A program made the position numbers and the translations under genes. The notes beneath the pieces are model-generated. The model saw nothing but the letters and a program-made list of their open reading frames with translations. It did no database searches and had not been told where the DNA came from. Below are positions 14,069 to 32,800 of a stretch of DNA of 64,000 nucleotides, one piece after another. Source of the DNA: Mytilus trossulus (lineage: Eukaryota). Numbering within the stretch: position 1 is the stretch's first letter; the number at the start of each line of letters is the position of its first letter. The stretch covers positions 65,968,001 through 66,032,000 of the forward strand of contig NC_086378.1 of the NCBI RefSeq assembly GCF_036588685.1, in the 5' to 3' direction.

Positions 14069-17000
14069 ATGTTATATATTTTTTTAGGATGGTTATTTCT
14101 ATTTCATTTAGGTATGTATACAGGTTTTAAGTGATTTTTTCTGTGTATTGTAAGTGAAGGAGGTTAGGGAAAGACCATTTCATTTTCTTAGTAGAAAGAG
14201 GGAGACAAGACATGAACAAGTGGATATCATGGGCCTATTCAGAACTAAAACGACATAATCTTGCCTAGAAAGTATACGTATCAATATTCTGAAAAATTAT
14301 AATAGTAGGACATTATTGTGCATAAGTGTGAAAAGGAATAAGCCGTCATAACAACAGATGAAAATGCACACTTCGCCCAAAAAACGTCTCATGTTTTCGG
14401 CGAGAAGAAAAACACTTATCATCGCCTTAGTGTATTCACGGTGATGTATAGTAAAAATATAAGAACTTCAATTAAACTAATAAAAAATAAACAAGATCTA
14501 TAAAAGAAGCATCTGATTAACAATACTTTTCCTAATGATAATACAAATTTGTTTGTTTATTTTAGTTAGTAGATAGAAATAGGAAGATGTGGTGTGATAG
14601 TTAGTGCAGGACATGACGGCCTTTAAGATTTTTACTTTTGGTTGCTGTCTCATTTTAACTTACTGCTTCTTTTGTCCATAGCACAGTCATTGTAATTAAA
14701 TAAAAAAAAATCAGTTTGCGGGTTTGTACAGATGTGGTAGATACGTCTGTGTGAATATTAAGTAAAGGGAAGGTATTGTTAGAATACTGTCTCATTGATT
14801 TAGTCTAGCTTTATTTATTTGATAAAAAGGAAAATAATCTTAAGTCGAATTAGAAAGCAATAAAAGAAGGCCACATCTTTGGCAACTAGTTTGGCATTTA
14901 TAGACATTAAAAGAAGGTTAACTGTAAAATCCTTAGTGTTTCGAAAAATTCAAAGTTTTGTAAACAGGAAATTTAAAAAAAAATTACCACATTATTGATA
15001 TTCATGTCAACCCCAATGTGTTGACTACTGGGCTAGTGATACCCTCGGGGACGAAACGTCCACTAGCAGTGGCATCGACCCAGTGGTGTAAAAGTTATCA
15101 AAGGTACCAGGATTATAATTTAGTACAGCAGACGCGCGTTTCGTCTACATGAGACTCATCAGTGACGCTCATATCAAAATATTTATAAAGCCAAATAAGT
15201 AAAAAGTTGGATAGCATTGAGGACCCAAAAGTTCCAAAAAGTTGTGCCAAATACGGCTAAGTTAATCTATGCCTGGGATAAGAAAATCCTTAGTGTTTCG
15301 AAAAATTCAAAGTTTTGTAAACAGGAAATTTGAAAAAATGACCACAATATTGATATTCCTGTCAACACTGGAGTGTTGACTACTGGGCTGGTGATACCCG
15401 CGGGGACGAAACGTCCACCAGCAGTGGCATCAACCCAGTGGTGTAAAAGTTATCAAAGGTACCATGATTATAATTTAGTACGCCAGACGCGCGTTTCGTC
15501 TACATAAGACTCATCAGCGATGCCCATATCAAAATATTTATAAAGCCAAATAAGTAAAAAGTTGGAGAGCATAATTGATAGAAAGTGATGAAAAAGATTA
15601 ACCAATTTTGAAGAATTTATTTAATATTTATAAAAAAGAAAAGACAAGAGACATTGAATACCAATTGAAAAATTTACCGACTTGAGTTAATATATACACA
15701 TGTGTTGATATTTGATTTCCTTTGCATTTCATTGAAGTTAGCTTACACATTTCAGGTAGTACAGGTGTGAAGGCAGCCTCTTCAACTGCTCAACAAGATG
15801 TCGATTATGTGTAAGTTACTTATAAAAATACCAAATGAGAAAGACTATCTAAAAGTTCCCAATTTAAGTCATTTTTAATCACGTGTTAAATAATTAAACT
15901 TCAAAACATGAGACATGCAAGTGATTGTATAGTAGTTCAATAAAAAAATGTTTTTCAAATTGTCCAGTGAATTTGTATATAAAATTGGCTACCTTAATAA
16001 TGTTTCTACCGCTATTGATATCCAAACTTTATTCAGTATATATATAATTTATGTAAGCGGTTATAATCAAGACAATTCTCAAATATCTTTCTTTCTATTT
16101 TCGTCCAAACGCACCATTAAGCAACATCTTATGACATGATAACATGTTGTTAATAATACATTATATCACTTACATTTACATCAAGGTAATAATAAATCTA
16201 ATTGTCAGGACCTATTTTAAAAGCGGAAATACACTGAAGCTTGAAAACATGTCGTGGATAAGGACAGAAATTATGCCTTGTAAAGTATCTTTAATATGCA
16301 GAGAGCGTCCGACTCTTCGTATTCGAGAAATAGGATTTTAGGTCTTAATTTAGTCCGGACGTAATTGCGTATTTAAACATCTGGCACATCCTTTCCATAA
16401 GCATTGGTTTAATCAGCAATCGGGTAAGAAAATTCCAGGACTGTCTTAATTTTTATACCTCCGAAAAACCGAGTCAATATCAAGGGATAACATATGATTT
16501 ATTATGTATAAAAAAAAAAAATTTAGTTAAATTAATTGGAAGGTATGGTTTCATATTGACCATGTGTGATGCGAATCGAGTTATTGGAAACATATTGTAA
16601 TGGACAACAGGAAGGCGATTAGAGTTCATACTATCCCTTTGCACAAAAAGGCGTCTGGGGACTTGTTAACCTTGTATTAAGTGGAATAGAATAAATTTAA
16701 ACAAAACACATGAATATCTTTTGTTTTTAGATTTGTATATGTGACAAAGATTGTTATTAACAGACTCGCAAAATACATTCAACTATCAATAATTACATCT
16801 GGCATAATGCCTGCATGATACGTCATGATCTTTTTAGTGTATTATCTGATAACTTAAAGGGTGATTGCATATAGATATACATACACGTCAAACGAAAGAA
16901 GTACTATTGGCAATACTTACTTTTAATGAATTTAAATATTATCTTGATTACACAGTCAAGATTTAGTCTGTTAATTACCTTGCTCTTCAATGTTACATAT

Positions 17001-22390: not shown

Positions 22391-23203
22391 TCGATACAGT
22401 AACTTATTAACACAATGTTGTCGTTGATTACAGTTTACAGAGACATTTCCATGTTGGTTAAGTCTTAATAGAACATTCAGTTGCATTGAAGTAACGTACT
22501 AGAAATTGTAAACTCTCTGCATATTTTTGTTTGTTGTCATTAAAAAAACCCAAAGAATTTAGAAAAACTAATACAATGTCTATGTACAGATGAAAAGCAC
22601 TACAAAAAATGTCATTCGATACTGATTACAAACAGAAAAAAGACCGTATAGAATTTGTTTCTAAATCAGAAATTGCATATACCATGTCAGGAATATGACA
22701 GTTGTTATACTATCGTTTGATATATTTGAGATTTTGATTTTGTCATTTAATAACAGACTTTCTGTTTAGAATTTTCCTCGGAATTCGGTATTTTTGTGAT
22801 TTTTTTTTTTTTTGGCGAAAAGATACACGTTCTTCCGTTATTCTTTATATAATTACAAATAACACTTTACTTGTCTTTTCCGATGTGAAATATATAAATA
22901 AAAAAACGTAAAACGATTAATTTTTTATCAAAAATTCAAAGACATAATTTTTAACTTACATTTAGTTGTGTATGAAATATTGCAACAGTTTATACTTAAT
23001 TATTTCAAACATAAATCACTACTGAAAAACTATTAACATTGTCATAACCATTATCTAAAGAAACAGCAGTTGCTTTGTCTTTGAAATTGTATTGTTAGTT
23101 TAAAAAACTAAATAAAATGATAACATTGTTTTCCCTTATCATATCTGTCCAACAGATATGTAAAATGATGTCAGGATATAAAGTCAATCATTAAAAATAA
23201 CAC

Positions 23204-23300
23204 TTATATTATAATTCGCCAACTCAAACGAATATAAATTATTTAATAAATAAAACAACACATAAATAGGATAAGTGTGCCTACAGCTGTAGCAGCCTTT
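23204..23300 (-). repeat. Split direct repeat B2 (3' terminus)
   Basis: Matches 23798-23894; identical over 23212-23300. Confidence 0.92.
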
Positions 23301-23529
23301 AATATTACATTACATTCAATTTCATTCTCAAAACTAAAGTCCTTCACTTTAAATTCAGGCACACTACCATCAGTCCAATCATACAATAGCACAGTTATAT
23401 ACAGTAACAGTAACACAATCAAAAACTATCTACAAAAGAGGAAAAATTCATATTAATATAATGTACTAATGCATATACTCCTATTAACGATAACCATCTC
23501 ATAAAAGGGGTGGGTGGGTGGGTAAACAT

Positions 23530-23894
23530 AATAACGAATGCTGCTACGTCGTACTATAGGCAAACTTCGAATAACTTAATTTTCTCAAGCTACCCCCTTA
23601 AGTAATACTTAATCATGCTTTTCACGAAAATCATGAGGGCATATACCCGTAAAACCGGCAGTACGGGTATATGCCATCCAATCAAATAGAACGTAAACAC
23701 ACACCATGTGCTTGATATAAACACACACACGTGTTTATAGTAAACAATCACTTGACCGTTACAACGTCATGTGACTTAATACCTTTAATAAATATATTTA
23801 TATTCTAATTCGCCAACTCAAACGAATATAAATTATTTAATAAATAAAACAACACATAAATAGGATAAGTGTGCCTACAGCTGTAGCAGCCTTT
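23530..23894 (-). repeat. Internal B1-A2 repeat junction
   Basis: B1 (23798-23894) directly abuts A2 (23530-23797), reproducing the expected circle junction of the element ends. Confidence 0.92.
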
Positions 23895-23984
23895 CGAAAG
23901 ACAAAGAAAGCAAAAAATGCAAGTAGATGTGAGATGTGAACATAGAGTGATACATATACAATGTATAAAGTATATTTATGAAAA

Positions 23985-25001
23985 TTATATTCCCAAACTT
24001 TTAGACACTGTCAGTTTTTCTTTTATATTTTCTCTTACATAGCCATCTTTGGCTTTATCTGAAGCCCATCTACCATGCTTCTTGAATAATCTATCCTGAA
24101 TGCCAGCTGATGCAGCTGCAGTAGCTCCACCTGATCTCAAGCTATGTAATCCAAATTTGGACTTATCTAAACCGATAGATTCAAGAGCTGATAATATAAT
24201 TTCTCTTACTCTAGTATATGATAAAGGTTTAAGACCTCTCAGTTTATAAGACTTAGATTTTTTACATAAATACATTGATCTAAATATATAATCTGAAGAT
24301 AAAGCGTCAATATTAGATAATAATAAATATTTCTCCAACATACTAACAGGACATGTTTGTGTATCTGTTCTAGCAATTAAAACCTGTGTGCCTTCTCTAT
24401 AATGATCAGTTTTGCTTTTCGTTATGAGCAAAGAGACATGTGAATCACTAAATTTTATATCAGATCTTTTTAAATTTACCATTTCAGAAAACCTTAAGAA
24501 CCCTGCATAGCTTATAAGACACATACAACAAATTCTAATTTCTATAAGATTGTTACATTCTTGACCATATTTAATAACAATTTTCTTTAAAATATCTGGT
24601 GTAATTGGTTCTTTTTTTATTTACAATAGCATGTCCGATCTTTCTATGAGCTCCTTCTTTAACCGATATACACAACTGTGAATAACACGGGTTTGGATAG
24701 CCTGCTAGTTTATGAGCCCAGCTTATGGAATAATATGCTTCTTCAACCTTAGCATACGAATTAAATGTCTTTGACAGGTGTATTAAGTACAATGAAACAT
24801 AAAAATCTGAAGCTGGTAAAGGTTTAACATTTAAATAGTTATTACACCACTTACAGAAATTGTTAAATGCATATGAATATTTTCTTTTGGTATTCTCGGC
24901 CTTCGAACGCAGACAGAACTCAGGTAGGCAATTAGATAAAGATGTCAAATCTTGGTCGACTGGCTTAGGCAAGGATTTCCATATTCCACATGAAAAAATA
25001 T
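23985..25001 (-). CDS. Tyrosine recombinase of the retrotransposon (interrupted by a 1-nt frameshift in an A7 run)
   Basis: N-terminal core-binding part (RSKAENTKRKY..F..WC) and catalytic part (GFLRFSE, SKTD, HSLRSGGAT, HGRW.S...Y). Deleting one base of 24612-24618 restores NKKEPITPDILKKIVIKYGQECNNLIEIRICCMCLISYAGFLR. Confidence 0.9.
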
Positions 25002-25213
25002 CTGAAAAACGTGCATATGAAATAGAAATATAATCTACTATACAACAAGCTTACAATATAATTAAATGACCTTGCCATATTTATTTTTCATACTGGCCAT
25101 GTCAATGAGACCTTGCCTATTAAATTTGGCCTTGTCATCAACAAACGACCTTGCCAATAAATTTGGCCTTGTCTTTACTATGCGACCTTGCTCAACAGCC
25201 TTGTCGTCAATTC

Positions 25214-27964
25214 TTACGTGAACTCAGCGTTCAATCTAATAGCTAAAACACTAGAAACGAATTCAGAAGATCCCAACAAGGACTTATTATTCATACCATG
25301 AATAAAAATGTTCTGATTTGGTTGAAATTCTAAAACATCAATTACATATGGTTGCAAATGCGAACCTCTTTTAAAAATCATTGTCCAAAATGACGAGGAA
25401 GGCCACTTTGGAACGATCAAAGTGCCTCTAGCTTTACATAAAATCAAATGTTTAATTGCTCTACAGACAACAGAAATTGGAGGAACAATCCAATTAACTT
25501 CATTGTTCCAATTTTGCGTGAACGCATCAACTGCTTCAACACCTGGATTCCAGAACTTAGAATTAAACCTGGGTAATTTTTTATTTAAATTACTCGCAAA
25601 TCTGTCCACAGTATGCGGACCCCACATATCATCTATAAATTTAAAAAATTCTATGCTTGTTCCCCAGTCTTCTATATCAATCATTTTTGAAATATAATCA
25701 GCTTTAGTATTTTCAGATCTTGGGATCCAAACAACTTCTAACGTAATATTCAATTCAGAACACAACTTAAAAATATTCATAGCTATCTCTTGTAAATGTA
25801 CTTTTGAACTTCCTTTCTGAACAATGAAAACACAGTTATTGTTATCTGTATGCCATTTAACACATTTATTTCTTAAACGGTTTTTAAAAGACATCAATGC
25901 TAACAAAATAGCTTGAAGTTCTCTCCAAGTAGAACTCTGTATAGACTCTTGTAAAGTCCACATCTGATGAAAAATATTAGAGTCAATATCTATCGAGTAA
26001 GCACCAGCAGCTACATTACTTGCATCAGAGTATACAACCACGTGGGGAAAAGAATAACCTGCTAAATGTTTTCTGTTCAATCTTAGAATGTTATTCAGCC
26101 AAAATGTGAGCTCATTGAATACACAATCGGGACATTCCAATTTTAAATTTAAATCCCACTTTACCCTGCTTTCAATAGCCCAGTGTAAATAACGGGTCAT
26201 TAAACTAGTTATGTTACCCATGACTGGACACATAGAAATTACCTTTCCAGTTACCTGAGCCAATTTACGTGCTGTGAAATAAGGAAAGTTATTCAAAACA
26301 TCAACCAATGATGCTAGTGTATTTTCAATCCGTCTATCTGATATACTAATTGAAAAATCAGACGAATTCCAAACTAAACCTAACCACTCTAAACATTGGA
26401 CTGGTTCAAAAATAGATTTTTCCCTGTTAATAAGAAACCCTGCTTCTAACAAAGACGTTTTTACAAAAGATGAACATTCGGAAGCTTCTTGTTTATTTTT
26501 ACCCATTCCAAGTCCATCATCTAAGTAAAGCACAATATCTACGCCGTTTTCTCGCCAGTATTTTACGATTGGACGTAAACATTTAGTGAATAGATATGGA
26601 GCAGACGAAAGACCAAAGGCTAAAACTGTAAAACAGTAAAATTTATTGTTCCAGCAAAGTCCTAAATATGTTTGTTGTTTAGTACATACGTCATAATGAA
26701 AATAACCAGACTTAAGATCAAACTTAAATAGATAGCAATCTTTTGTGAAATAGTTTAAAGCCACTTTCCAGTCTTCAAATTTAATTCTTTCTTTTTTAAT
26801 AAAAACATTCAGTTCACTCAAATCCAAAATCAGACGTTTTTTGCCCGAACTTTGAACTGCAACACTAAGCGGATTTACAACAAAAGGTTGAAATGGAGTT
26901 TCAATAACACATCCGATATCAAGTAATTCTGAAATTGCTTCATTTACAAATTTAGAATGGACATTAGCAGATTTGTTATTCTTAAATGACATAGATATAG
27001 GAGTCTGCAAAAAAGGAATAACATACCCATTTTTGATAGTATTTAAAACAAACTCATTAGCACCTATATGTTTCCAAAATTGTATATGCTTGCGTAAGCT
27101 ATATTTCACCCCTTTAGCAACAGATGAAATATCAATATTATCAAAATATTTTGCATGTGACATAAACAGTTCAAACTGTCCGTAAAGATTACGTTCATCT
27201 AAAAAAGTAGTATAAAAATACTTATCATTAATTCTGTTGCCTTGTTGTCCCTGAGACACCTGGTTTTGTACTGAATAAGAGGGGGCACTGAGTTCGCCAG
27301 TGACCAAGCTGGTTGCAGTTGTAACAGATGTCCTGAGATGACGGTTCCCTCCGTCTGCCGGTCCGAAAGGGCGGCTGTTGGTAGTTGTTTTGTCTAGCGT
27401 TATGTTGATTAGGCATAGGTGCAGAAGGAGCAGAAGCAGTAGCTGTAGCGGTTCTATAAGGATGAGGTCTTTTCTTTTCCTTGATACTCCTGATGGCACG
27501 GGTTTCTGCAGAACGAATGCGCTTCTCGTCTTCTGAGTCGGAGGCAAGGTCGTCGCTTTCATATTCACGGACGGTTTTCCATCCTGCAGGAGATTTGTCT
27601 GCAATGCGGATGAGTTTATTTCGCTTCTTAACCTTAAGGATAGCTCCAGATACCAATTTAAGACAAGCTGCATCTTCATCAGGAATACGCTTCTGGAGCT
27701 TAACGAGGTCGGCCATGATTTCACAATTAAAGATGAATTGTATCTGGTTGCCCTCACCTTTGAGTTTAACTGAAACTTCCTGCTTGAGTTTGGTAGCAAA
27801 ATTCTCGTTGCCAACTGCCAAATCTTTGTGTAGAGTAGCGATCTTCCCATCAAGATAGGTTTTAAACAGAGAGAAAGTATCCACCAAGTCGTTATTCCCA
27901 GTATTATGTGCAGAAATACCATCACGCAACGAATGTACACTAGTACCAGCTGGCAAAGATTCAT
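25214..27964 (-). CDS. pol: Pol: reverse transcriptase, RNase H and methyltransferase-like domain
   Basis: RT motifs FDLKSGY, FGLSSAP, YLDD; RNase H YSDAS, WRELQAI, HTDN, ADYISK; DIRS MT-like DRFAS..FNS..DAF...W..NWIVPP. Overlaps gag in another frame; the true start is uncertain. Confidence 0.95.
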   Translation of the reverse strand: MNLCQLVLVYIRCVMVFLHIILGITTWWILSLCLKPILMGRSLLYTKIWQLATRILLPNSSRKFQLNSKVRATRYNSSLIVKSWPTSLSSRSVFLMKMQLVLNWYLELSLRLRSEINSSALQTNLLQDGKPSVNMKATTLPPTQKTRSAFVLQKPVPSGVSRKRKDLILIEPLQLLLLLLLHLCLINITLDKTTTNSRPFGPADGGNRHLRTSVTTATSLVTGELSAPSYSVQNQVSQGQQGNRINDKYFYTTFLDERNLYGQFELFMSHAKYFDNIDISSVAKGVKYSLRKHIQFWKHIGANEFVLNTIKNGYVIPFLQTPISMSFKNNKSANVHSKFVNEAISELLDIGCVIETPFQPFVVNPLSVAVQSSGKKRLILDLSELNVFIKKERIKFEDWKVALNYFTKDCYLFKFDLKSGYFHYDVCTKQQTYLGLCWNNKFYCFTVLAFGLSSAPYLFTKCLRPIVKYWRENGVDIVLYLDDGLGMGKNKQEASECSSFVKTSLLEAGFLINREKSIFEPVQCLEWLGLVWNSSDFSISISDRRIENTLASLVDVLNNFPYFTARKLAQVTGKVISMCPVMGNITSLMTRYLHWAIESRVKWDLNLKLECPDCVFNELTFWLNNILRLNRKHLAGYSFPHVVVYSDASNVAAGAYSIDIDSNIFHQMWTLQESIQSSTWRELQAILLALMSFKNRLRNKCVKWHTDNNNCVFIVQKGSSKVHLQEIAMNIFKLCSELNITLEVVWIPRSENTKADYISKMIDIEDWGTSIEFFKFIDDMWGPHTVDRFASNLNKKLPRFNSKFWNPGVEAVDAFTQNWNNEVNWIVPPISVVCRAIKHLILCKARGTLIVPKWPSSSFWTMIFKRGSHLQPYVIDVLEFQPNQNIFIHGMNNKSLLGSSEFVSSVLAIRLNAEFT

Positions 27965-27998
27965 GGTCGGAATCTAGAAGTTTCTCGGAGTCAGACAT
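27228..27998 (-). CDS. gag: Gag-like ORF1 with CCHC zinc knuckle
   Basis: First ATG at 27998. RNKLIRIADKSPAGWKTVREYESDDLASDSEDEKRI segment and CYNCNQLGHWRTQC knuckle. Confidence 0.9.
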   Translation of the reverse strand: MSDSEKLLDSDHESLPAGTSVHSLRDGISAHNTGNNDLVDTFSLFKTYLDGKIATLHKDLAVGNENFATKLKQEVSVKLKGEGNQIQFIFNCEIMADLVKLQKRIPDEDAACLKLVSGAILKVKKRNKLIRIADKSPAGWKTVREYESDDLASDSEDEKRIRSAETRAIRSIKEKKRPHPYRTATATASAPSAPMPNQHNARQNNYQQPPFRTGRRREPSSQDICYNCNQLGHWRTQCPLLFSTKPGVSGTTRQQN

Positions 27999-28003
27999 AC
28001 CAC

Positions 28004-28271
28004 AATAACGAATGCTGCTACGTCGTACTATAGGCAAACTTCGAATAACTTAATTTTCTCAAGCTACCCCCTTAAGTAATACTTAATCATGCTTTTCACG
28101 AAAATCATGAGGGCATATAACCGTAAAACCGGCAGTACGGGTATATGCCATCCAATCAAATAGAACGTAAACACACACCATGTGCTTGATATAAACACAC
28201 ACACGTGTTTATAGTAAACAATCACTTGACCGTTACAACGTCATGTGACTTAATACCTTTAATAAATATAT
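28004..28271 (-). repeat. Split direct repeat A1 (5' terminus)
   Basis: 268 bp, 1 mismatch to 23530-23797. Confidence 0.93.
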
Positions 28272-29829
28272 CTATTCAATATATAAAAATGAATACTTTT
28301 ATCGATTTCATGTTTTAAGTACAACATGATTTAAATCTGAAAAAGGACATTTTACTTACAAGAGAGGAATAGTATAGAAAATACACTAGCTATTATCAGA
28401 TCATTTACTTTTCTTGGGTCTGTCTTCTGCATACATTTACCCTTCCAATTGTCTTGTCATTGTGCTGCAGAGTAGAAGTACGATGGCATGCATTTAGACT
28501 AAAGGGCACATCAGCATAGACATTATCGGGGTCGTTTCTGCATTTCATGTTACTTATTTGTAAACCGCGCCATTTGTTGCACTTAAGTGTTTTTGTTGTT
28601 TCATTTGTTTCCTCTTATAGTTGATGTGTTTCCCTCGGTTTTAGTTTGTAACCCGGATTTGTTTTTTTCTCAATCGATTTTCGAACAGCGATATACTATT
28701 GTTGCCTTTATTTGGATACAACACAATACGATACTTCGATACCCATCTTAATCAAACATATTCAAAGTGGTCAGTTTATTTATGATGACGTCTACAAAAA
28801 TTTTAAACTTAAGAGAAAAATTTACACTTTTACAAATAACATCACTTGGTTCACCAACTTCATATTTCGTAGTAGCCCTATATATATTTGATCCCATACT
28901 TCCAAGAATAAAATTATTATGAGGACGAACTCTCAAAATCTAATTTTTAATCACAGTATGAGAGATGTATAAGATAGCAATATCGATATATCAGTCATAT
29001 GTTTGTATTTTATCTTTATCAACAATAAGAAACATGTTCGAATAAAAAACGTGTTCACAGGATTTTTATATCTATTTTATTTTGCATTAAACATTAAAAT
29101 ACATGAAATTTGAAAGAAGCGTCAACGTAGTCGTCCATCGTAGGCCAATTACACATGTAAATAAACTCATCATAGATACCAGGACTAAATTTTTTATAGA
29201 CGCCAGACGCAAGACGTTGTCCAGCAGTCCTAATATGAAATGACTTTAGACAGATCACAACATTTAGAGTATTTTTGACCGGTTAGATTTTCTCTTTTTG
29301 AAACAGTTTTCAGGTATAGTGACAAAACTAGAAGGTTATCCTTATATAAAGGCAACAGTAGTATACCGCTGTTCAAGTTATGCTATCCATTTAGCCGTGT
29401 CGGTCGTATTAGTTGACGGATTATCGGCATTTTTTAAAAACTAGATACAACCAGAGTGTGGCCAGTTGTAGTCTCATATTGGCCAAGTAGTTGCAGGGGA
29501 GAAGGTCATTGTAACGGACGACAGATACGACGGATGATGGCGTAATAAGAATAGCTCATATTATCCTTAGCGTTATGTTGGCTAATAGAAAGGAGGAGAA
29601 AAAAAGACATCTGCTCATGAAATAATATATATGAAAAAACATAATCTTTCTTGTATTCATGTCGAAAGACGATTGTCAGAAAAAAAGTGACCGCTGAGTT
29701 AATTAATGCTTATCAACGTAGAGTGATTAATGAACAAACGACGAACTTAATTCTATTTTAAGATTTTTGTACTTTAAGGAAACAGAAACCTGATAAGCCT
29801 GATTTTGAGTAATCCGTTTTTTTAGTAAA

Positions 29830-32800
29830 AAAGTTTACTGTGATTTGAAGATGCTGTTACAGATGAAAACGTAAAAACGAAAACAATCTAAGTTTCAAGT
29901 CCAATGTTGGCCCAATCGTTGGATATTTTCCCGATAAACTGGCCAAAGAGGGACAATTCTTATCACATCAAAACCAGTTTATTGGAAAGACGCATTGATT
30001 CATTTCTTGTCAGTATTTATTGACACACAAAAAAGATCTGGAAGATCAAAATAAGCAGACCTGTAACCTTTCCTATAAATTATAGATATAATGTGTAAGT
30101 CATGCATTCTTAACTTTTCGATTAAAACTTGAAAATTGAGGCTTGCATTTATTCTCTATCAAGGTTTCGTTGAAAGAGATTTGTAATGCGTACACTAAAT
30201 ATTTGTAAGAGGTTTATAAATGATTAAATTAAACTCATTTCTTCAAATTTTGTACGGAACCCTGTTGATTGTTGTGGAAATTCTGTTTCACCAAGGATTT
30301 GCACCATTTCTCGGTACCACAAAACCGACTTATTTCCTGGATTGAAACATTATGAGGGGCTCAACATATGCGGCGATGGAACTGCCTACGTTGTCGTAAC
30401 ATCTAAGTGATTGGTTGAATTCGTTTAGTATAATCTTTTTTGTGAAACGCTTTGATTTATGTGTTTGTTTGTTCGTCGTGTTTATATTTAGTATAGTGTC
30501 GTCAGTTTTCGTTGAACGTAAGATTTTCGAATTGTTTGTATCTTCTCTCTTTCTATAAACGCTGTGCCAATACTATCTGTCAATACTATCGCCAGACCAA
30601 ATCATGTATTTCAATAATCCCACAAAAACAATATTAGTACCTTAAATAAATCAATCAAAAAGATATACTGGTAGACACTAAAATATAAAAAAATGTGATA
30701 AGACAACAGCCAATAACATTATATTAAAAACACACAAAGAGAAAAATAGTCCCCAAACGAGATATATTTCGAGAATAAACACAGAAAAAGACACTGTTAT
30801 TACAGAAACGTGTGTTCAAAGTAAAGGTTATTTTGATCATGTGGGAATGCTGTTTTTTCTGGTTTTTTGGGACTTTCACTCTGGCGGAAAGTTCTTGCAG
30901 CTGTTAATATTTATTTTTAAAACTCAGTCAATAGTTCTCAGTGCTTATTACTGTAAACCACAACTAATTAGGTTATGTTTTACCAATTATATTACAGTTT
31001 GTGTATGCCTCATGACAGTATTTATTAACTTTTAACGGAAATGTTAATTACATTTACCTGTTTAGTAAAATGAAACAATTAGATTAAACAAGACAGGCCC
31101 CAGTGTGATCTTATGAAGTTCTGTTATTAGTTTATGGTACCATAAGTGAACAACTTTATTATTCGTGGCCTCAAAAGTTTTAATACTTATTTCAACTTCT
31201 GTCATTATATGGTTCAAATGTATATACAGCTGTTCTTCGACAATACTGTTAAAGATTTAAGTTTATAATTAAAATATACGTATCCACAAAAAATAAAATG
31301 ATAATATCAAAGCAAGAAGATTCATACAGACACTTTCTAAATATATGACATTTGTAAAGAAGTCGTGATTCAATATGGAAAACTCTAAATAACTGGAACC
31401 TATATTACATGTTGTAATATGGTACATTTTTTTTAGGATGGTTATTTCTATTTCATGTAGGTATGTATAATGTAGTTTATGATTTGTCTGTTTATTTTGA
31501 GTATCGAAGTTAAGGGAAGACCATTTGATTTTGGTTGGAAAGAGGGGGACAATGCATGAACAAGAGGATATCATGGCCTGTTCAGAAGTAACACAATATG
31601 CTCTTTCCTTGACAGTATATATTTGAATATTCGGAATCTATTGTGTATCGTCATGACAATAGGTGAAAAAGCACATATCGCCCGCTAGAAAATATAATGT
31701 CCTCCTGTACATACGAAAAGAAAAAAATGTCATCGCCCTAGTCTGTTTACGGTGAAGTATAGTGATGATATAAGATCAGCAATAAAAAGAAAACGATATT
31801 TTAAAAGGGAACAACTGCTGAACAATAGTTTTCCGTCTTATTTCGAATACTAGTACTTATGATAATACACAAATTTTAGTTATTCTAGTTAGATGACAAA
31901 CTCTTTTATATTGATTTCGAGTCTAAACTCTTAGATTGACACTTCAAAAAGTTTGACTACAAAGTTTAAACTGTTCTTTGAGAGTCAGTGCAATCGATTT
32001 TGATTTTGTAGTAATTCGGTGTTCAAGTAGGATTTCCATAGGGTTCAAGTGATCGTTCATCGTCAATTGCAGGACATGACGACCTTTTACTTTTGTTTCC
32101 TTTCTCGTTGCATTTTATTTTACTGCTCCTTTCGTCCATAGCACAGTAATCATTATAGTTAAATAAACATAATTTTGCGGGTTTGTACAGATTTGGTAGA
32201 TACATGTGCATCTGTTTTAATATGAGGTAGAGGGTATATATTGTTATAGTGCTGTCTCATTGATTAAGTTTAGCTTTCTTGAATTTGAAAAATAATTTTA
32301 CGCCGAATAAGTAACTAATAAAAGAAACATCTTTCGCATCTAGTTTGGCATTTATAGACACCAAAGAGGGTTTACTGTAATTGATAGAAAGGGATAGGAA
32401 AAAAAACCAACTGAATTTGAAGACCATTTTCAATATTTATATAAAAAAAAAAAACGAACAGAGAAGTTGAGTGACAATTGAATAATTTACCGACTTGAGT
32501 TATAGTTTACATAAATATATACTGTGTTGATATTGATCCCCTTTGCATGTTATTAAAGTTAGTTAACACACGTATTTGTATTATTTCAGGTAGTAAATGT
32601 GTAGAGGCAGCCTTTTCAAATGCTCAACACGATGTTGATTACGTGTTAGTTGTTTGAGCAAATACCAAATGAGAAAACCATATAAAAATTAGCGGTTTTG
32701 TCATTTTTTTTACGAGTAAAAGTAACTAGACTTCAAAATGTAGTCTATAAGTCACCAAATCGGACCTTCAATTTGACATCTTTTTATTTGAATAAATAAA

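Follow-up and report, generated by a model that had tools for sequence, protein, structure and literature searches.

AT-AC splice ends around pol and a predicted +1 frameshift site as a likely route to recombinase expression in a PAT-like retrotransposon of Mytilus trossulus

The DNA considered here is a 64,000-nucleotide stretch of the Mytilus trossulus genome (contig NC_086378.1, positions 65,968,001 to 66,032,000), called the window, and it carries on its minus strand a 5.1 kb retrotransposon at about 28275-23200. The element encodes gag, pol and a tyrosine recombinase (YR) whose open reading frame (ORF) lacks an AUG. It is likely that pol is bounded by AT-AC splice ends, that its removal swaps the recombinase into the frame of pol, and that this frame is entered by a +1 ribosomal slip in gag. 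Directly observed are two joints in assembled sequencing contigs, written here in the direction of the element as 27226^25010 and 24855^23429, together with the reading frames and the conservation of the donor, the acceptor and the slip motif. The contig runs are guessed to be RNA, and these joints would originate by splicing.

There are 20 sequencing runs that hold the element, and the contigs of four of them, from four studies, were examined (X1, X2, X3 and X15; three are guessed to be RNA and one is of unknown type). In X2, X3 and X15, contigs join 27226 to 25010 and skip 2215 nucleotides (nt) with unambiguous placement. X1 has two variants, which we read as this same joint accompanied by a small adjacent indel. 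The AT-AC joint is supported in all four runs, and we have high confidence in it. The skipped part, intron 1 (25011..27225, minus strand), holds nearly the whole pol ORF; it begins with ATAAGT and ends with TATGCAC. Its donor, G|ATAAGTAT (27218..27226), has a U2-like consensus with A at +1 and is located 2 nt after the gag stop codon. The acceptor, GCAC| (25002..25014, with the intron ending at 25011), is followed by exonic GTTTTTCAG, which carries the AG at 25003-25002 that a first-pass annotation of the window had proposed as the YR acceptor. This AG lies 9 nt beyond the end of the skipped part. After joining, the frame reads N-G-F-S-D-I-F: starting at the donor codon, pol gives way to YR, which continues in the frame of pol.

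The second joint is located within YR. Contigs leave the element at 24855 in all four runs, and the loose contig end printed for X1 and X15 corresponds to the window from 23429 onward, which gives 24855^23429. The matching intron 2 (23430..24854, minus strand, 1425 nt, T|GTAAGT ... TTTTGTAG|A) has GT-AG ends and removes the body of YR along with the repeats B1 and A2 described below. Exon 2 of the doubly spliced RNA would thus be a 156-nt segment (24855..25010, minus strand) containing the first 52 YR codons, and record 19 of the X2 contigs spans exactly this segment. The second donor (TGT AAG TGG) is not general, being found in 6 of the 29 clusters of related elements introduced below, and a strong acceptor in the A2-B2 spacer is found only in part of the families. 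Another joint in the contigs, 28275/23810, goes back within the element and was set aside as B1-A2 sequence that had been merged with A1 in assembly. Contigs carrying the first joint have depths of 85 (X2) and 691 (X3), compared with 9 and 68 for pol contigs, although contig depths cannot rank the parts of the element and such comparisons are a hint only.

With 117 of 1459 candidates scored, the genome gave at least 119 YR matches. Forty loci chosen across score classes, plus L049 and six metagenome loci, were compared (L114 was dropped), and they fall into 29 clusters that share less than 85% YR DNA identity. The counts below cover the 23 clusters, here called families, that possess gag, pol and YR and in which the +1 overlap is present. 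Excluded from these counts are L097 and L103, in which gag and pol are in frame, and L110-L113, which lack the start of gag and pol on the contig. A donor near the gag stop codon is present in all 23 diverged families, with 13 being A-type and 10 being GT-type. Every A-type family, across two clades, has a phase-1 G|ATRAGTAT located 5-44 nt from the gag stop codon, and this pattern occurs only twice in 15702 pol codons, equivalent to 0.003 expected per search window. Moreover, the middle codon of the donor is AAG or GAG in 13 of 13 A-type families versus a share of about 0.25 in pol. At the homologous start of YR, a phase-1 YAC is present in 12 of the 13, and a YAG downstream of the AC is kept in all of them, either 9 nt away (nine families, phase 1) or 14 nt away (four families, phase 0). 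Since the nearby AG of the second A-type clade is in phase 0, only AC (or AA) matches the donor phase in that clade. The loci L098, L115, L116 and L117 combine an A-type donor with YAA at the acceptor position, and an AT-AA intron is predicted for this family from its sequence.

The 10 GT-type families have phase-0 donors, AG|GTACA in five and |GTTRAGT in the other five, and nine of them have a phase-0 YAG at the homologous place. The GTTRAGT form resembles the atypical donors with a shifted register that Roca and Krainer reportedly described in 2009. The existence of a shifted register is stated in the accessible part of PMC4856993. Each of the four donor types forms one clade in the pol and YR trees, which were built from the loci of this analysis alone without reference elements, and the two AT-AC clades are not sisters under a midpoint root. 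With the trees rooted in this manner, AT-AC ends may be ancestral. In the outgroup families L097/L129/L130 and L103, gag and pol are in one frame without a TTT_C motif, and an AG with a pyrimidine tract is found near the start of YR.

Proteins from databases carry a related signature. There are 118 that were screened, 47 of which have the anchor motif and 42 of which read straight across the acceptor. These 42 YR ORFs have R, H or Q (residues with C-start codons) at the acceptor in 35 instances (background 0.017), N or S in six and I in one, and the N and S residues are compatible with an AA end. The preceding residue permits NYA in 39 of the 42 (background 0.49). An oyster model, P0123, contains PFV as well as VNDKY, and LFR and HFSAIF are present in the pearl-oyster model P0150. 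Of 11 copies in the family to which the window element belongs, eight have an intact donor.

Given that the donor lies after the gag stop codon, the spliced RNA still encodes complete Gag, with YR in the +1 frame, and a fusion of the two needs a frameshift. Motif conservation points to a predicted +1 ribosomal frameshift site, CCC_TTT_CGG (27363..27371, minus strand), wherein TTT is Gag codon 211. An in-frame TTT_C is present in gag of all 23 families; it is extended to TTT_CGN in 21 and preceded by CCC in 17. The motif resides 14-49 codons upstream of the zinc knuckle, in a linker that otherwise aligns poorly. Across Gag, TTT accounts for 0.57 of Phe codons and CGN for 0.49 of Arg codons, and at the motif all 21 Arg codons are CGN. 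Naive chance products are 3e-6 for TTT and 3e-7 for CGN, with the families not being fully independent. An in-frame TTT_C is absent from the 80 codons scanned in each of the two families with in-frame gag and pol. Downstream of the motif there are no stop codons in the +1 frame, compared with 7.1 expected from synonymous shuffles. A conserved in-frame UUU_CGN followed by an open +1 frame is characteristic of PA-X-type sites, and we consider frameshifting at CCC_UUU_CGG to be quite probable from these comparisons. The related UCC_UUU_CGU is a proven +1 site with about 1% slippage in influenza PA-X, and similar sites occur in other RNA viruses, as described in the available part of PMC3498833. 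A TAATG overlap at the gag stop codon was considered as a restart site for Pol or YR and rejected, with its ATG being in the wrong frame.

Deleted subfamilies do occur in the M. trossulus genome and the contig runs are not recorded as RNA, and both facts are consistent with the joints being DNA deletions in a non-autonomous, internally deleted element that is common in other mussels and missing from the assembly. However, no genomic copy with either joint was found, as none of 18 genomic matches (18/18 candidates scored) begins at 25010 or ends at 24855 and none of 22 (21/21 candidates scored) ends at 27226. Furthermore, both joints fall on splice consensus sequences kept across families, and both recur in RefSeq transcript models of another family from M. 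californianus, that of locus L069, which has 57% YR identity to the window's family. Models P0011 and P0027 read VIVN-G-FSDIF across the first joint, a reading compatible with the AC but incompatible with the AG, and P0041 carries the second joint and has a tail that maps to the A2-B2 spacer of L069. These entries and P0014, discussed below, are predicted gene models. A DNA copy of spliced RNA would itself imply splicing, and we regard a deletion origin as highly unlikely. Most AT-AC introns are of the U12 type, with 169 U12-type versus 15 U2-type examples in human (PMC1557818, in the part available), which would favour the minor (U12) spliceosome. The donor of intron 1 is nevertheless ATAAGTA and not the U12 donor ATATCCT, no U12 branch motif (two or fewer mismatches) is present in the last 45 nt of the intron, and sister clades carry GT-type U2 donors at the same place. 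Removal by the minor spliceosome is therefore extremely improbable. Because the donor ATAAGT differs from the U12 ATATCC and the branch motif is absent, intron 1 is very probably a U2-type AT-AC intron removed by the major spliceosome, and its donor matches the U1 complement at 8 of 11 positions. The exonic AG may be a U2AF site that enables use of the upstream AC, as in Drosophila Sxl exon 3. The accessible portion of PMC1557818 reports 15 U2-type AT-AC introns in human, 6 in mouse and 3 in fly, and also notes that a G-to-A change at donor position +1 is rescued, though less efficiently, by a G-to-C change at the last intron base.

With the splice as described, Pol and YR could instead start at a +1-frame AUG within gag by leaky scanning, and there would be no Gag fusion. 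This possibility gains some support from the RefSeq model P0011, which begins at such an AUG, and from the +1 frame upstream of the motif, which stays open longer than in synonymous shuffles, for 172 codons with four AUGs in the window's family (p 0.002) and for 155 codons, again holding AUGs, in L071 (p 0.004). However, stop codons are not depleted upstream overall (194 seen versus 203 expected) as they are downstream, the open stretches upstream of the motif in L093 and L099 contain no +1 AUG, and leaky scanning leaves unexplained both the universal TTT_C among the 23 families and its absence from the families with in-frame gag and pol. We find this alternative doubtful. The first-pass annotation had placed the splice elsewhere, with a GT donor at 28000 (G|GTATGT) or 27757 (AAAG|GTGAGG) joined to the AG at 25003-25002, yielding either an RNA for YR only or an in-frame fusion of about 80 Gag residues to YR. 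The motifs exist in the letters: the AG precedes an exon start at 25001 in phase 1 of the YR frame, the stretch 25050..24571 of that frame holds no Met, the donor at 28000 overlaps the gag ATG (27998) exactly at the end of A1 (28001), and the donor at 27757, in phase 1 after 80 Gag codons, is in frame when joined to 25001. All 16 family copies retain the AG, and since all nine families of the window's clade have a YAG at the corresponding position, chance does not account for the acceptor region. RefSeq models of related families also join the equivalent AG to GT donors inside pol, as in P0014 from a related M. californianus family. However, neither 27758^25001 nor 28001^25001 is listed in the four contig sets that do show 27226^25010, with the caveat that contigs drop rare forms, and the donor at 28000 leaves no in-frame AUG. 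In addition, the two donors (27752..28001, minus strand) are not conserved. Three of the 23 families have a GT[AG][AT]GT near the end of A1, and the window's family alone has it right at the boundary. Of the 19 families in which the corresponding gag motif could be located, two have GT at the 27757 codon. Thus, from their sequences the two donors look like chance matches, and there is very little likelihood that they supply the recombinase message. What survives of that proposal is RNA spliced into the start of YR, which the contigs bear out at 27226^25010, and the Gag-YR fusion, which is a likely product with about 211 Gag residues gained via the frameshift in place of about 80. The exact junction was wrong, since the observed one connects a donor immediately behind the gag stop codon with an AC upstream of the proposed AG. 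This AG may be used as an acceptor too. RefSeq models from oysters and mussels (P0113, P0115, P0116, P0123 and P0014) likewise connect pol-internal donors with the region where YR starts, which suggests further minor splice forms.

Several observations weigh against a weak intron around pol combined with a shared slip site. A contig that runs from the first joint into the body of YR was not seen in the four runs, and thus the YR message itself was not seen. Contig depth for the YR body exceeds that for pol in X2 (21 versus 9) and not in X3 (36 versus 68). The joint is not shown by any run recorded as RNA, as the contig runs are labelled 'RNA?' or '?', and it is missing from four raw RNA runs (X21-X24, with 49, 26, 20 and 17 reads) that are too shallow to count. 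The search of sequencing runs listed no RNA holder of the element, a result that counts for neither side. Within the window's family the AG is retained more faithfully than the AC, which is kept in 9 of 16 copies, with the seven losses occurring in decayed copies. Exceptions also exist among the families. The L098 family has YAA instead of YAC in all four copies, the L083 family is GT-type without a phase-0 AG at the homologous place, and the decayed copy L127 pairs ATTGAGT with TAG. The GT-type patterns were picked after seeing the data and without a background test. The four donor types are also four clades, meaning that the covariation of intron ends rests on two to three independent changes. 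Regarding the frameshift, the +1 frame is open far upstream in the two families described above, and stable RNA structure around the slip motif was not found (z 0.60).

We nonetheless favour the following expression scheme. Both joints would arise by splicing, with the U2 spliceosome excising intron 1. The weak A+1 donor would leave part of the RNA unspliced to serve as the genome and the pol message, and low splicing efficiency would presumably suit an element that needs unspliced RNA. An RNA that has lost intron 1 and kept intron 2 would be the YR message. Ribosomes would slip +1 at CCC_UUU_CGG in gag to enter the frame of pol or YR, such that unspliced RNA would yield Gag and Gag-Pol and singly spliced RNA would yield Gag and Gag-recombinase. 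The computed products are Gag of 256 amino acids (aa), Gag-Pol of about 927 aa and Gag-YR of about 598 aa, and both fusions would be without the zinc knuckle of Gag. Doubly spliced RNA, which is devoid of B1 and A2, would serve mainly for Gag production. On balance, we lean towards a broader interpretation in which this arrangement characterizes a lineage widespread in molluscs. The whole of pol would be a deliberately weak intron, one PA-X-type slip would be the shared entry, and splicing would pick between the reverse transcriptase (RT) fusion and the recombinase fusion. The weak site would have been rebuilt in several ways (AT-AC, AT-AA, GTTRAGT-AG and GTACA-AG), with both ends and the phase changing together, and the exonic AG would be the landing site of U2AF for the upstream AC.

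The remaining features of the element fit a PAT-like classification, based on its split direct repeats and a methyltransferase domain. Repeat comparison gives the order A1 ... B1 A2 B2 on the minus strand, with A1 at the 5' end of the element (28001..28275, 275 nt, 99% identity to A2), B1 at 23795..23894, A2 at 23527..23801 and B2 at the 3' end (about 23200..23300). Both repeat pairs are present in 25 of 25 family representatives. No terminal inverted pair was found in this comparison, and it is direct repeats that bound the element, which is unlike a DIRS1-like organization. The gag ORF (27228..27998, minus strand, 256 aa) matches PF00098 (E 1.7e-6) and has a CCHC knuckle at aa 224-239. The body of the pol ORF (25214..27226, minus strand) is read in the +1 frame relative to gag, ends at 25214, comprises 670 aa when counted from the donor codon and encodes RT (RVT_1, E 7e-15), RNase H (E 5e-3) and a Dam-like methyltransferase (E 3.3e-4, aa 520-595), with the latter two matches both being under curated cut-offs. 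The YR ORF (23985..25010, minus strand) matches PF00589 (E 2.8e-12), and the window copy is disrupted by a frameshift near 24618 that the first-pass annotation overlooked. The profile search of the element proteins found zf-CCHC, RVT_1, a weak RNase H and Phage_integrase, and no integrase family match. A combination of gag, RT/RNase H and tyrosine recombinase without a DDE integrase is as expected for PAT-like elements, and the sub-threshold Dam-like domain after RNase H fits PAT-like and not Ngaro elements. The PAT-like definition used here (gag, RT/RNase H/methyltransferase, YR and split direct repeats A1...B1 A2 B2) is taken from the available parts of PMC3266345 and PMC6681497. Four other copies are 98-99% identical to the window element over nearly all of their own length, and named homologues come from Mytilus and other molluscs.

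Several additional observations concern the repeats, the surroundings and the decayed relatives of the element. An imperfect palindrome in repeat A (28109-28152 and 23635-23678) could form a hairpin. Repeated exon-like blocks with AG and GT borders flank the element on both sides on the plus strand (15749-15842 and 32583-32676), and the element may sit antisense inside an intron of a host gene. Four short elements (L037, L045, L047 and L048) of about 600 nt contain nothing but A, a spacer and B, the structure that A1-A2 recombination would leave behind, akin to solo long terminal repeats. Two gag deletions (about 27977-27936 and 27768-27524) are common to the subfamily of L054, L056, L057, L058 and L065, which has spread without an intact gag. 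The second of these deletions was considered as a splice from 27757 and rejected, given that its ends are not at that donor. Three loci on one contig (L062, L063 and L064) are all truncated on their 5' side at about 25062, a short distance before the acceptor, where they are joined to another repeat.

Parts of this proposed system have precedents. PAT-like elements of the order DIRS share gag, RT/RNase H/methyltransferase, YR and split direct repeats with the window element, but neither splicing nor a defined frameshift site is described in the available parts of PMC3266345 and PMC6681497, whereas both are proposed here. For Ngaro, Poulter and Butler suppose a frameshift from RT/RNase H into an overlapping YR (as quoted in the accessible part of PMC13003380). 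In contrast, pol and YR of the window element do not overlap, are about 200 nt apart and would be swapped by splicing. The U2-type AT-AC (type II) introns of SCN4A, SCN5A and TAF2 are alike in having AT...AC ends and a U2-type donor, but those in the covered part of PMC1557818 are in host genes, whereas the present candidate is a retained, protein-coding intron (pol) in 13 transposon families and differs further in that an AG is conserved 9 or 14 nt beyond the AC. PA-X-type sites (UCC_UUU_CGU, and UUU_CGN of amalgaviruses) likewise place an in-frame UUU_CGN where a +1 overlap begins. These sites are reported for RNA viruses in the part of PMC3498833 at hand, whereas the 5' codon in the transposons is mostly CCC and a single predicted slip site would serve two enzymes, with splicing determining which of them is made. 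The Ty1/Copia element EVD makes a spliced short RNA dedicated to Gag, which keeps Gag in excess, and the window element resembles it in this respect (PMC5580714, in the portion available). Copia, however, has one gag-pol frame and its splice makes only Gag (same portion), whereas the window element would use one splice for the recombinase message and a second for a Gag-only RNA. The literature searched contained no description of DIRS-order elements being naturally spliced, carrying an AT-AC intron or having a defined frameshift site, with Poulter and Butler 2015, Goodwin and Poulter, and Repbase Reports being outside its coverage.

In the literature covered, expression of the recombinase that lacks a start codon in DIRS-order elements has so far been guessed and not shown, and exact testable sites are now given for all three proteins. 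Roughly two dozen U2-type AT-AC introns are known, from host genes of five model genomes, and a class comprising 13 transposon families in one genome would be added to them. These families constitute a natural series of pairs of first and last intron nucleotides. If the proposed slip is correct, then the PA-X-type +1 motif extends from RNA viruses to retrotransposons. Aligners restricted to GT-AG introns would miss the AT-AC joint. Finally, the bivalve RefSeq models named 'xerD homolog' would be transcripts of such elements.

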